64,000 nucleotides of DNA from Parcubacteria group bacterium Athens0714_12 (GTDB lineage: Bacteria > Patescibacteriota > Patescibacteriia > UBA2591 > VMGY01): NCBI GenBank assembly GCA_007378955.1, contig VMGY01000007.1, positions 8,644 through 72,643 on the forward strand. The letters run 5' to 3'. A program made the position numbers and the translations under genes. A model generated the notes under the pieces. It ran no database searches. It saw only the letters and a list, made by a program, of their open reading frames with translations, and was not told where the DNA came from. Position 1 is the stretch's first letter. Each line of letters opens with the position of its first letter. Positions 15,580 to 17,325 of the stretch are shown piece by piece.

Positions 15580-17325
15580 ATGAAAGAATCAAAATTAAAA
15601 AAATATCAGCAGAAAAGAAAATTTGAAATCACGCCGGAGCCGGAAGGAAAGATAGAAAAAAGCGAATTAAAAAGGTTTGTCGTCCATAAACACCAAGCTC
15701 GGCATTTGCACTATGATTTTCGTCTGGAAATGGAGGGTGTCTTAAAATCTTGGGCCGTGCCCAAAGGAGTGCCGGAGAAGCCAAATGTAAAAAGACTTGC
15801 CATTGAAGTAGAAAATCATCCGGTTTGTTTGGCTCCTTTTACAAAAGTTAATGCCCCGGGAGGCGAAAAAAGTATTAGAAAAAATTTTTCTAAAATTTTT
15901 TCTTATAATTTTCAAAATAGGAAAGTAGAATCTAAAAAAATAACAGCTTTTTCTAAAAGAGAAATAAATAATGATGAAATTACTTTATATTTTCATCAGG
16001 GAAAACCATTAAAAAAATTGTGTTGTACCCTGAATCATGAAATATTTGCTCCTCAAGGTAAAAAACAAGCATTTCAACTTAAAAAAGATGATTTTATTTT
16101 TATTTTAAAAGAGACATTTCAAAAAAGGAAGAAGGAGTTACTTTTAGGTATGCTTTTGGGAGATGCGGGATTAGAAAGCAACGGTTCTTACAGTAACACA
16201 GCCATTGTTTCTTTTACCCACTCTATTTCTCAAAGAGATTATTTACTTACAAAATGCAGACTGCTTAATTTAAAATTTCATTTTCAGAATTATCCTTCAA
16301 AAATACAAAGAATTAAAAATTATACTGCCTACTTTAAACCATCAATCAGGGCGGTGAGTAAGACTTACCCTTTTCTTTATGATCTTTATCTACTTTGTTA
16401 TAAAAACGGAAGAAAAACTCTTACTAAAGAATGGCTAAATCAATTAAGTGAAGTTTCTCTGGCTTATTTTTATCTCGACGACGGCAGTTTATTAAAAGAT
16501 AAAAATAAAATGAACATTCATGCTATAGAGCTATCTACCCAAGGATTTACAAAGAAAGAACAGTTATTACTTAAAGAAGTGATAGAAAAAAAATTTGGTC
16601 TTAAGACTAATATATATCGAATAAATAGTGGAAGCGGTTGGAGGTTAAGAATTTCTAGCGTAAAAAAATTTTTTTCTTTAATTTCCCCATGGATTCCTTT
16701 AAAAATTATGGATTATAAGATAGGTAAGCATTGTCCTGTTTGTGGAAATTCAGTCCCTGGTTTTAAAAATCATTTTTGTTCTTATTGTTTGTTGAATTAT
16801 TTAAGAAAATTAAAATATCCTTCTTATGCCGATTATTGTAGGTTGAGGTATTATGAGAAAAGAGGTGGCGTTGCCCCAAAAACTTTTCAGAATTATTTTG
16901 GAAGTTGGGCTAACGCCATTAAATTAGCAAAAGAAAATAAATTAGTAGTTTCAGGCCAGAGGGGGAGTAAAGTAAAAGAAATTAAAAATGAAAGAATGAA
17001 AAAGGATATAGGAATAGCCAAAATCAGAGAGATTAGAAAAAAATGGAATCCCGAAAGAAAGTATGCACATGATATTCAAGTTAAGGATAATCATAATTTT
17101 TTTGCAAATGGAGTTTTGGTAGGAAATTCTTACATTGATTTTTTTGGCGTTATTCCCGAAGGTTCTTACGGCGCCGGCAACGTGGAAATTTGGGACAAGG
17201 GAGAATATGAATTATTGGAGAAAAGCAAAAAAACGATTAAATTCAGATTAAAGGGCGAAAAATTAAAAGGCGAATATATTTTGGTTTTAATGAAAGAAAA
17301 TAACTGGCTGATTTATAAATTGTAA
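15580..17325 (+). CDS. stand-alone LigD-type 3'-phosphoesterase (PE) domain protein interrupted by an intein (host exteins 82 + 65 aa)
   Basis: Extein N: [32 protein letters not shown]...VENHPV; extein C: [27 protein letters not shown] - LigD PE domain signatures. Confidence 0.75.
   Translation: [581 protein letters not shown]
15826..17127 (+). mobile_element. intein (434 aa) with LAGLIDADG homing endonuclease domain and a C-terminal Cys-rich zinc-finger-like segment
   Basis: Begins at Cys (CLAPF), ends ...[14 protein letters not shown] followed by +1 Ser; two LAGLIDADG motifs ([24 protein letters not shown]); in-frame within the PE-domain gene. Confidence 0.8.

Follow-up and report, generated by a model that had tools for sequence, protein, structure and literature searches.

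The gene described here very probably encodes the precursor of a stand-alone, manganese-dependent DNA 3'-phosphoesterase (PE) which is interrupted by a splicing class-1 intein with a homing endonuclease of the I-SceI type; splicing and DNA cleavage are the two parts of this reading that we infer. The gene lies in a stretch of 64,000 nucleotides (nt), hereafter the window, of contig VMGY01000007.1 from a metagenome-assembled genome (MAG) of the Parcubacteria (Patescibacteria/candidate phyla radiation, CPR), and all positions are counted within this window. The listing of open reading frames (ORFs) and its translation gave a single stop-free frame of 581 amino acids (aa), about 68 kDa, on the plus strand (15580..17325). 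The N-extein (15580..15825, 82 aa) ends with ...IEVENHPV and carries H38, H44, D46, R48, and H80. The intein follows (15826..17127, 434 aa, about 50.6 kDa); it opens with CLAPFTKV and extends from Cys1 (TGT, 15826-28) to Asn434 (AAT, 17125-27). The C-extein (17128..17325, 65 aa plus the stop codon) starts with Ser+1 (TCT, 17128-30) and a Tyr (17131-33), and its remainder completes the beta-barrel of the host protein. The translation confirmed the split into 82, 434, and 65 aa that had been proposed in a preliminary description of this DNA, including the Cys start after VENHPV and the Ser+1 after the insert.

Once joined, the exteins give a contiguous protein of 147 aa and 17.4 kDa. This protein aligns without gaps across the junction to the stand-alone PEs of Candidatus Korarchaeum (CkoPE, 3P4H; E 9e-47) and Methanosarcina barkeri (MbaPE, 3P43; E 1.5e-45), as well as to the PE domain of P. 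aeruginosa LigD (E 6e-39). The Pfam model LigD_N matches the precursor in two separate stretches (E 1.5e-35, 122 bits, cut-off 31.1), and the NCBIfam equivalog-domain model LigD_PE_dom (TIGR02777) scores 163.4 bits against a cut-off of 144. In CkoPE, mutagenesis assigned His9, His15, and Asp17 to manganese and Arg19 and His51 to phosphate, with Tyr55 as a further catalytic residue (PMC3082917). All six are kept in the window protein as H38, H44, D46, R48, H80, and Y518 (precursor numbering). With the model cut-off passed and the six residues present, the joined exteins can be assigned to the LigD 3'-phosphoesterase family, in line with the PE domain of about 147 aa suggested earlier. By homology, the spliced enzyme would be manganese dependent and would remove 3'-phosphates and 3'-ribonucleotides at DNA ends.

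The insertion separates these catalytic residues. Five of them lie in the N-extein and Tyr518 lies in the C-extein. In the local sequence context ...E-N-H80-P-V/S-Y... (a slash marks the insertion point here and below), the intein sits two residues past the phosphate-binding His (codon 15817-19) and two before the catalytic Tyr, whose codon directly follows that of Ser+1. The alignment proposed in the preliminary description as a check thus places the site next to the active site. Judging from the solved PE structures, neither the eight-stranded barrel nor a full active site would be able to form in the unspliced precursor.

The interrupted gene is present beyond the window contig. Five contigs from independent assemblies (ENA, Logan), as well as MAG records at NCBI, encode a protein identical in sequence; therefore, the interrupted protein is a real sequence and no assembly artefact. 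An assembly chimera was ruled out by the differing sources of these five contigs and also by the equal junctions in homologues of 60-90% identity. Two NCBI entries (TSC95343.1 and TSD05200.1, from the MAG 'Parcubacteria group bacterium Athens1014_10') contain this protein under the name 'DNA ligase (ATP)' and carry no intein annotation. The name is wrong, as the protein consists of a PE domain and an intein, and a ligase domain is absent. The possibility of an opposite-strand gene inside the intein was rejected because the ORF listing gave no ORF of at least 60 aa on the minus strand of 15826-17127.

Class-1 residues, named here after the block nomenclature in PMC4031507, are found at both ends of the insert. 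The N-terminal splicing (HINT) lobe (intein aa 1-100, 15826..16125) carries block A (CLAPFTKV) and block B (T68-L-N-H71, 16027-16038). The C-terminal splicing lobe (aa 391-434, 16996..17127) carries block F, with D416 (F:4) and H423 (F:13), and block G (VLV-G433-N434). Together with Cys1, the terminal Asn434 (G:7), and Ser+1, these residues are kept in alleles with identities as low as 62% and, for the most part, in 12 related inteins, among which C1, T68, and H71 are invariant or nearly so. The Pfam model Intein_splicing (PF14890) scores 53.7-55.6 bits (cut-off 35.8), and the NCBIfam model intein_Cterm (TIGR01443) scores 25.6 bits (cut-off 15.6) over precursor residues 498-517. Moreover, homologues without the insert exist, and joining the exteins restores their contiguous sequence.

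The predicted structure points in the same direction. The AlphaFold2 (AF2) model of the intein alone, built from 12 sequences, reached a predicted local distance difference test (pLDDT) of 81.9 and a predicted template modelling score (pTM) of 0.78, with about 85-95 pLDDT in the splicing lobes and about 90 in the N-terminal one. The full-length model from 7 sequences was poor (pLDDT 57, exteins below 40) and served for a first Foldseek pass only. Foldseek recovered the HINT fold of the Mtu RecA, DnaX, NrdJ-1, and DnaB mini-inteins with a probability of 1.00 and root-mean-square deviations of 1.7-2.3 Å over about 100 columns (1.8 Å over 101 columns for the Mtu RecA mini-intein). Other matches of the intein model were PI-PfuI (E 6e-14) and the TliVMA and PI-SceI inteins. 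The insert is thus classed from its sequence and modelled fold as a class-1 intein with a HINT domain, and splicing is predicted.

Blocks A, B, F, and G are all present, and the one departure, which went unremarked in the preliminary description, is the penultimate residue (G:6). The usual His is replaced by Gly433; Gly is found in every allele at the window's insertion site (site a) and Ser in the alleles at a second site (site b). If Gly433 blocked the cyclisation of the terminal Asn, the insert would be a non-splicing domain, similar to a bacterial intein-like (BIL) domain, or an inactivating lesion in a pseudogene, and inactive precursor or fragments would be the only products. Such an outcome would fit the missing His, and among PDB entries, a BIL domain (6y75, E 8e-7) is indeed the one that the splicing lobes alone match best by sequence. 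Block B was aligned with CTVNH of 6y75, and the block F/G region with 6y75 and NrdJ-1; the lobes alone also match the NrdJ-1, CDC21, and DnaX inteins by sequence. Nevertheless, every nucleophile and assisting residue that separates inteins from BILs is present and conserved over the identity range given above, and Ser+1 is specifically tied to the intein alleles. The exteins are under purifying selection with their catalytic residues intact, which would be unexpected for a dead host protein. The penultimate His is an assisting residue, and inteins lacking it are known to splice (PMC4031507 reference 74; PMC5874633). Since it only assists and is missing from several splicing-proficient inteins, Gly433 is therefore no bar to class-1 membership. 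We consider a non-splicing insert very improbable.

Between the splicing lobes lies an I-SceI-type LAGLIDADG domain with two motifs (intein aa 104-299, 16135..16722). Motif 1 (aa 106-115, 16141-16170) contains D113 and motif 2 (aa 212-221, 16459-16488) contains D218 and D219; all three are invariant among the alleles of the window family. The domain matches Pfam LAGLIDADG_2 (PF03161) with E 7e-26 and 93.6 bits (cut-off 25). I-SceI itself was matched by phmmer (E 3e-6) and by Foldseek with the intein model (1r7m; E 1.7e-14, template modelling score 0.75). On the strength of the two motifs with their catalytic acidic residues and of the modelled pseudo-dimeric alpha-beta fold, the intein is assigned an I-SceI-type LAGLIDADG homing endonuclease, which is predicted to cleave DNA. 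Downstream of this domain, a zinc-ribbon-like element, CxxC-(11)-CxxC (CPVC...CSYC; aa 303-321, 16732..16788), has its four Cys invariant in six alleles, i.e., in the window allele and its five closest homologues. It is followed by a helical segment with ...FQNYFGSW... (aa 338-368, 16837..16929), which is weakly similar to the 'homing endonuclease associated repeat'. PF18780 matches this segment in all six alleles below the Pfam cut-off (E 0.005-0.009), and the segment is presumed to be an extra DNA-binding module. The family models, the predicted structure, and the intein-free orthologues all uphold the earlier call of a LAGLIDADG intein, and the two motifs and the Cys4 segment stand where they had been placed.

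Intein-free relatives are far more common than carriers. In a search with the joined exteins, each of the 120 best matches was a PE-only protein without an intein, 144-181 aa long, and many carried the names Patescibacteria, Parcubacteria, or Falkowbacteria. A native domain at the insertion position was ruled out, as the homologues have no insert there. The preliminary description had regarded a stand-alone PE without Ku or LigD as unusual. These matches speak for the opposite: stand-alone PEs appear as the norm in Patescibacteria, and this architecture is unremarkable in itself. A search with the full protein gave intein domains in only 6 of the best 120 matches, and a search with the intein alone gave just five close relatives, all at the same site and all in PE genes. 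Two carriers were found when 185,579 species-representative genomes were scanned with an intein profile, and the corresponding scan of metagenomes gave one Joint Genome Institute (JGI) contig with the allele, which are too few alleles for a phylogeny. The gene neighbourhoods of the carriers are unrelated to each other.

Two of the intein-free loci, L006 and L007, are informative in this respect. Their PE gene is 73% identical to that of the window and lies directly downstream of a Memo-AMMECR1 orthologue (66% identical), the same neighbour as in the window. They represent the empty allele in conserved synteny. Around the insertion point, 43 of 45 nt are the same in two empty alleles with an overall identity of 78%, and the conserved 45-nt stretch would be a suitable homing target. 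The uninterrupted PE site, taken as the putative cleavage target, consists of GTAGAAGATCACCCNATA and GATTACATTAATTTT, which meet at the insertion point; the empty site of L006 reads …GTAGAAGATCACCCCATAGATTACATTAATTTTTCAGG…. Ser+1 is found in every intein allele but in only two of the 120 nearest empty alleles; the empty alleles have Asp or Glu at this position. This distribution indicates that the Ser+1 codon travels with the intein. The preliminary description had also taken the intein as a mark of the functional importance of the PE. This does not follow, as the closest orthologues are intein-free, and the insertion position is equally explained because a homing endonuclease needs a conserved DNA target.

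Several observations suggest that the intein arrived by recombination. The GC content at third codon positions (GC3) is 0.20 in the intein and 0.39 in the exteins. Across 44 window genes, GC3 averages 0.343 +/- 0.049, the lowest value being 0.235, so that all of them lie above the intein (z = -2.9). A second allele, P0001 on contig L008, carries an intein with 92.6% nt identity to that of the window. The 60 nt upstream of its insertion point are 90% identical to the window and 62% to L006. In its distal exteins, the relation is reversed, with 76-77% identity to the window and 87-90% to L006. Among the sites that distinguish the two parents, the tract adjoining the intein has 20 window-like and 2 L006-like sites, compared with 21 and 64 elsewhere (Fisher p = 1.5e-8). 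Such a mosaic would be expected if break repair had brought an intein into an empty allele and had co-converted the flank. Furthermore, a comparison of the window with P0001 gave a synonymous divergence (dS) of 0.30 for the intein and of 1.6 for the distal exteins. The foreign GC3, the mosaic allele, and the low intein dS are indirect indications of mobility (homing), i.e., of transfer by recombination, and the intein is apparently still mobile. A separate mosaic was seen between a site-a allele (L009, 1-1740) and a site-b allele (P0251 on L019, 2210-3709). In the first 212 nt of the PE gene, the two are 89.6% identical in nt sequence; the likeness ends there, the C-extein and the flanks being unalike, and the breakpoint falls immediately ahead of the intein sites. 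Site a of P0251 is empty and reads HPVSY.

Selection bears on whether the endonuclease is still in use. The ratio of non-synonymous to synonymous divergence (dN/dS) between the window and P0001 is 0.10 for the intein, 0.095 for the endonuclease, 0.094 for the Cys4/helical module (aa 299-395), and 0.089 for the distal exteins, and the C-terminal splicing lobe has zero non-synonymous changes. These values speak for purifying selection on the intein, including the endonuclease and the accessory module. An alternative would be an intein that splices while its endonuclease is no longer active in homing, a vertically inherited passenger on its way to a mini-intein. The allele is rare and scattered, as such a passenger might be. 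Among the inteins at the neighbouring site b, P0255 (155 aa) is already a mini-intein without an endonuclease, and the first LAGLIDADG motif of P0006 has Asn in place of Asp. On the other side, the two catalytic Asp residues do not vary within the window family, selection on the endonuclease and its module is as strong as in the exteins, the intein dS is five times below the extein dS, and the co-conversion-like tract of P0001 ends at the insertion site. A passenger with an idle endonuclease is thus unlikely, and a splicing intein with a homing endonuclease is the reading we prefer.

For this preferred reading, the following course of events can be proposed. Translation would yield an inactive 68-kDa precursor, in which the HINT domain would fold. 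An N-S acyl shift at Cys1, helped by T68 and H71, would produce a thioester, and Ser+1 would attack it in a transesterification. Asn434 would then cyclise without a penultimate His, Gly433 standing in its position, and an O-N shift would give the contiguous PE of 147 aa and 17.4 kDa. The freed 50.6-kDa intein would act as a monomeric I-SceI-type endonuclease with an extra zinc-ribbon and helical module, and its target would be the conserved site in the uninterrupted PE gene of relatives without the intein. Recombinational repair from the intein-bearing allele would copy the intein and a short flank, including the obligatory Ser+1 codon. The donor DNA may be acquired through genes of the type IV pilus/competence type.

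Some points weigh against this proposal. Splicing and cleavage are predictions from sequence and model. As Gly433 occupies the position of the His that usually helps the Asn to cyclise, splicing may proceed slowly or with side reactions. The family assignment of the Cys4/helical module stays below the Pfam cut-offs; the zinc-ribbon and treble-clef matches to the Cys4 element, for instance, are weak and below cut-off in all six alleles. Intein residues 300-380 are the one low-confidence part of the AF2 model of the intein, with a pLDDT of 45-65 in the zinc-ribbon/helical module. As for the mosaic, it is one recombinant allele on a 2.3-kb contig, and it reveals recombination beside the intein and not the enzyme that initiated it.

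Inteins also occur at other positions of PE genes. When 1.84 billion cluster representatives were searched exhaustively with phmmer, two further insertion sites emerged in addition to site a (HPV/S; the window allele and its five close relatives). Site b (FxG/S) lies 7 codons downstream of the window's site and is occupied in P0006, P0251, P0255, and P0314. P0006 has Cbf5-like (DKCLD/TruB/PUA) neighbours and its host is probably archaeal, P0251 is bacterial, and in P0314, the PE is fused to an ATP-dependent ligase domain. The third site (H/S) comes directly after the catalytic His and precedes the window's site by 2 codons. It is occupied in P0257, P0283, and P0284, which have divergent PE domains; P0284 has an ATP-dependent ligase domain fused to the PE, and P0257 has SNF2-helicase domains too. 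The third-site inteins show the same layout as that of the window, namely LAGLIDADG_2 followed by Cys4 and a helical 'GxW' segment, with Gly as the penultimate residue in two of them and Ser in P0283. The three sites are packed within 11 residues of the PE active-site strand. The loci of the PE inteins at other sites are L015, L018, L019, and L020. In one further PE protein, P0253 (286 aa), about 100 residues of the PE domain are duplicated internally in tandem.

This clustering could be taken as a sign of regulation. The intein might be a domesticated regulator, a conditional switch in which splicing, and with it PE activation, is withheld until a redox, zinc, or DNA-end/damage signal arrives. 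The insertion between two catalytic residues guarantees an inactive precursor, C67 beside block B is invariant in the site-a alleles, a Cys4 module is present within the intein, and three independent insertion sites are grouped on one active-site strand. On the other hand, the closest orthologues manage without an intein, the composition and mosaic data indicate a mobile parasite, and clustering at conserved sites is what the target choice of homing endonucleases predicts. Such a domesticated regulator is therefore hardly to be expected. A different combination is doubtful, too: the PE active-site strand might be an unrecognised intein hot-spot across CPR bacteria, a probable archaeon, and PE-ligase fusions, and, in the window lineage, the zinc-ribbon intein without a penultimate His might act as a redox-, metal-, or DNA-dependent switch gating a DNA-end-healing enzyme.

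In its genomic setting, the ATG of the PE gene is preceded by GAGGAG (15568-15573), six bases upstream. The stop codon of a Memo-AMMECR1 fusion gene (14101-15579, 492 aa) directly abuts this ATG with zero intergenic bases. As the pairing of Memo-AMMECR1 and PE recurs in the intein-free loci L006 and L007, a conserved two-gene unit is suggested. A tRNA-Gly(GCC) gene (17399-17473) lies 74 nt downstream of the PE-intein gene. It is followed by a gene pair (17601-18881) with weak HATPase_c_2 and STAS matches, resembling an anti-sigma factor and its antagonist; their GC3 values of 0.28 and 0.24 belong, after that of the intein, to the lowest in the window. The window further contains RNase Y, YmdB, NAD-dependent LigA, SmpB with transfer-messenger RNA (tmRNA), IF3, and a large type IV pilus cluster. 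The tmRNA gene (tag AKNNAYAYATA) and smpB lie side by side on the minus strand (57158-57503 and 57549-58106, respectively).

The preliminary description had noted that Ku, an ATP-dependent ligase, and a LigD polymerase domain are missing. The Pfam scan of 54 window ORFs bears this out: none of the three was found, and the only ligase is the NAD-dependent LigA (50277-52286). Within the window, the PE is thus neither fused to nor near Ku, an ATP-dependent ligase, or a primase-polymerase, as it would be in a bacterial module for non-homologous end joining (NHEJ; Ku and LigD).

Regarding possible routes of transfer, the pilus/competence-type cluster (33636-48582) contains PilM, PilO, a PilB-like ATPase, PilC, a prepilin peptidase, and several pilins. 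At 29204-30921, T4SS_pilin domains are encoded by four small genes in tandem. These pilus/competence-type genes would offer a plausible route for the uptake of donor DNA, which is relevant to allele exchange. A viral origin or phage vector was also considered and is unsupported by the matches obtained. In the scan of IMG/VR, all matches fell within the LAGLIDADG region (intein aa 102-301) with 30-34% identity and none was a PE intein, and GenBank phages gave only distant intein or endonuclease matches, in a helicase and an RNA ligase.

LAGLIDADG inteins and stand-alone PEs are each well known; new are their combination and the insertion site, and with its Cys4 module and penultimate Gly, the intein varies a known theme. 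The main text of a survey of bacterial and archaeal inteins from 2016 names no LigD, PE, or NHEJ host (PMC4760082). Literature searches on inteins in LigD, phosphoesterases, or NHEJ and in Patescibacteria/CPR found no description of a PE intein. With this finding, the LigD-type 3'-phosphoesterase domain joins the known intein hosts. The finding also provides a clean natural case, from the uncultured Patescibacteria/CPR with their tiny genomes, of an intein transferred along with a co-converted flanking tract. The intein with its Cys1/Ser+1 junctions and penultimate Gly and the I-SceI-type endonuclease with its Cys4 module are candidates for splicing and rare-cutter tools, contingent on biochemical testing. 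The general understanding of inteins or of PE enzymes is unchanged by this finding.

Among known systems, the joined exteins align end to end with CkoPE (3P4H), MbaPE (3P43), and the P. aeruginosa LigD PE (2LJ6/3N9B), with E-values from 9e-47 to 2e-35. With its size of 147 aa and its stand-alone architecture, the window enzyme matches the archaeal stand-alone PEs, which have already been characterised (PMC3082917). In contrast, an intein is absent from every solved or characterised PE, whereas the barrel of the window protein is split between the equivalents of His51 and Tyr55.

The intein resembles PI-SceI (VMA1), PI-PfuI, and the TliVMA/PhoVMA inteins (Foldseek E 6e-14 to 1e-6). It shares with them a HINT domain with a nested LAGLIDADG endonuclease, the class-1 residues, and a conserved site in a housekeeping or repair enzyme. 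However, canonical LAGLIDADG inteins typically carry PF14528, and the window endonuclease is of the I-SceI type (PF03161). PI-SceI has a DNA-recognition region where the window intein has the Cys4 ribbon and helices, and the penultimate Gly and the host protein set the latter further apart. For intein residues 104-299, I-SceI and I-WcaI are the best matches in both sequence and structure, and the catalytic Asp residues align. Unlike the window intein, they are free-standing enzymes encoded by mitochondrial group I introns and have no splicing domain. The nearest relatives outside PE genes, with 26-37% identity, are PF03161-type inteins in RNA ligase, dCMP deaminase, RecA, RecD-like helicase, and DegT (P0121-P0126, P0252, P0254), for instance, the 'intein-containing RNA ligase' of Pseudaeromonas phage KLEP7. 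They have the same HINT and LAGLIDADG_2 layout and the same blocks F and G but differ in hosts and sites; most of them have His or another residue at the penultimate position and Cys at +1, and the sequences read have no Cys4 module.

Homing endonucleases in CPR have so far been known mainly from rRNA introns, where the I-SceI-type family also occurs (PMC11270868). The closest parallel to the clustered PE sites is found in the haloarchaeal MCM inteins, whose sites (MCM-a to MCM-d; PMC10643990) likewise fall within a few residues of one conserved motif. Host and lineage differ between the two cases, the PE sites being spread over CPR bacteria, a probable archaeon, and PE-ligase fusions.

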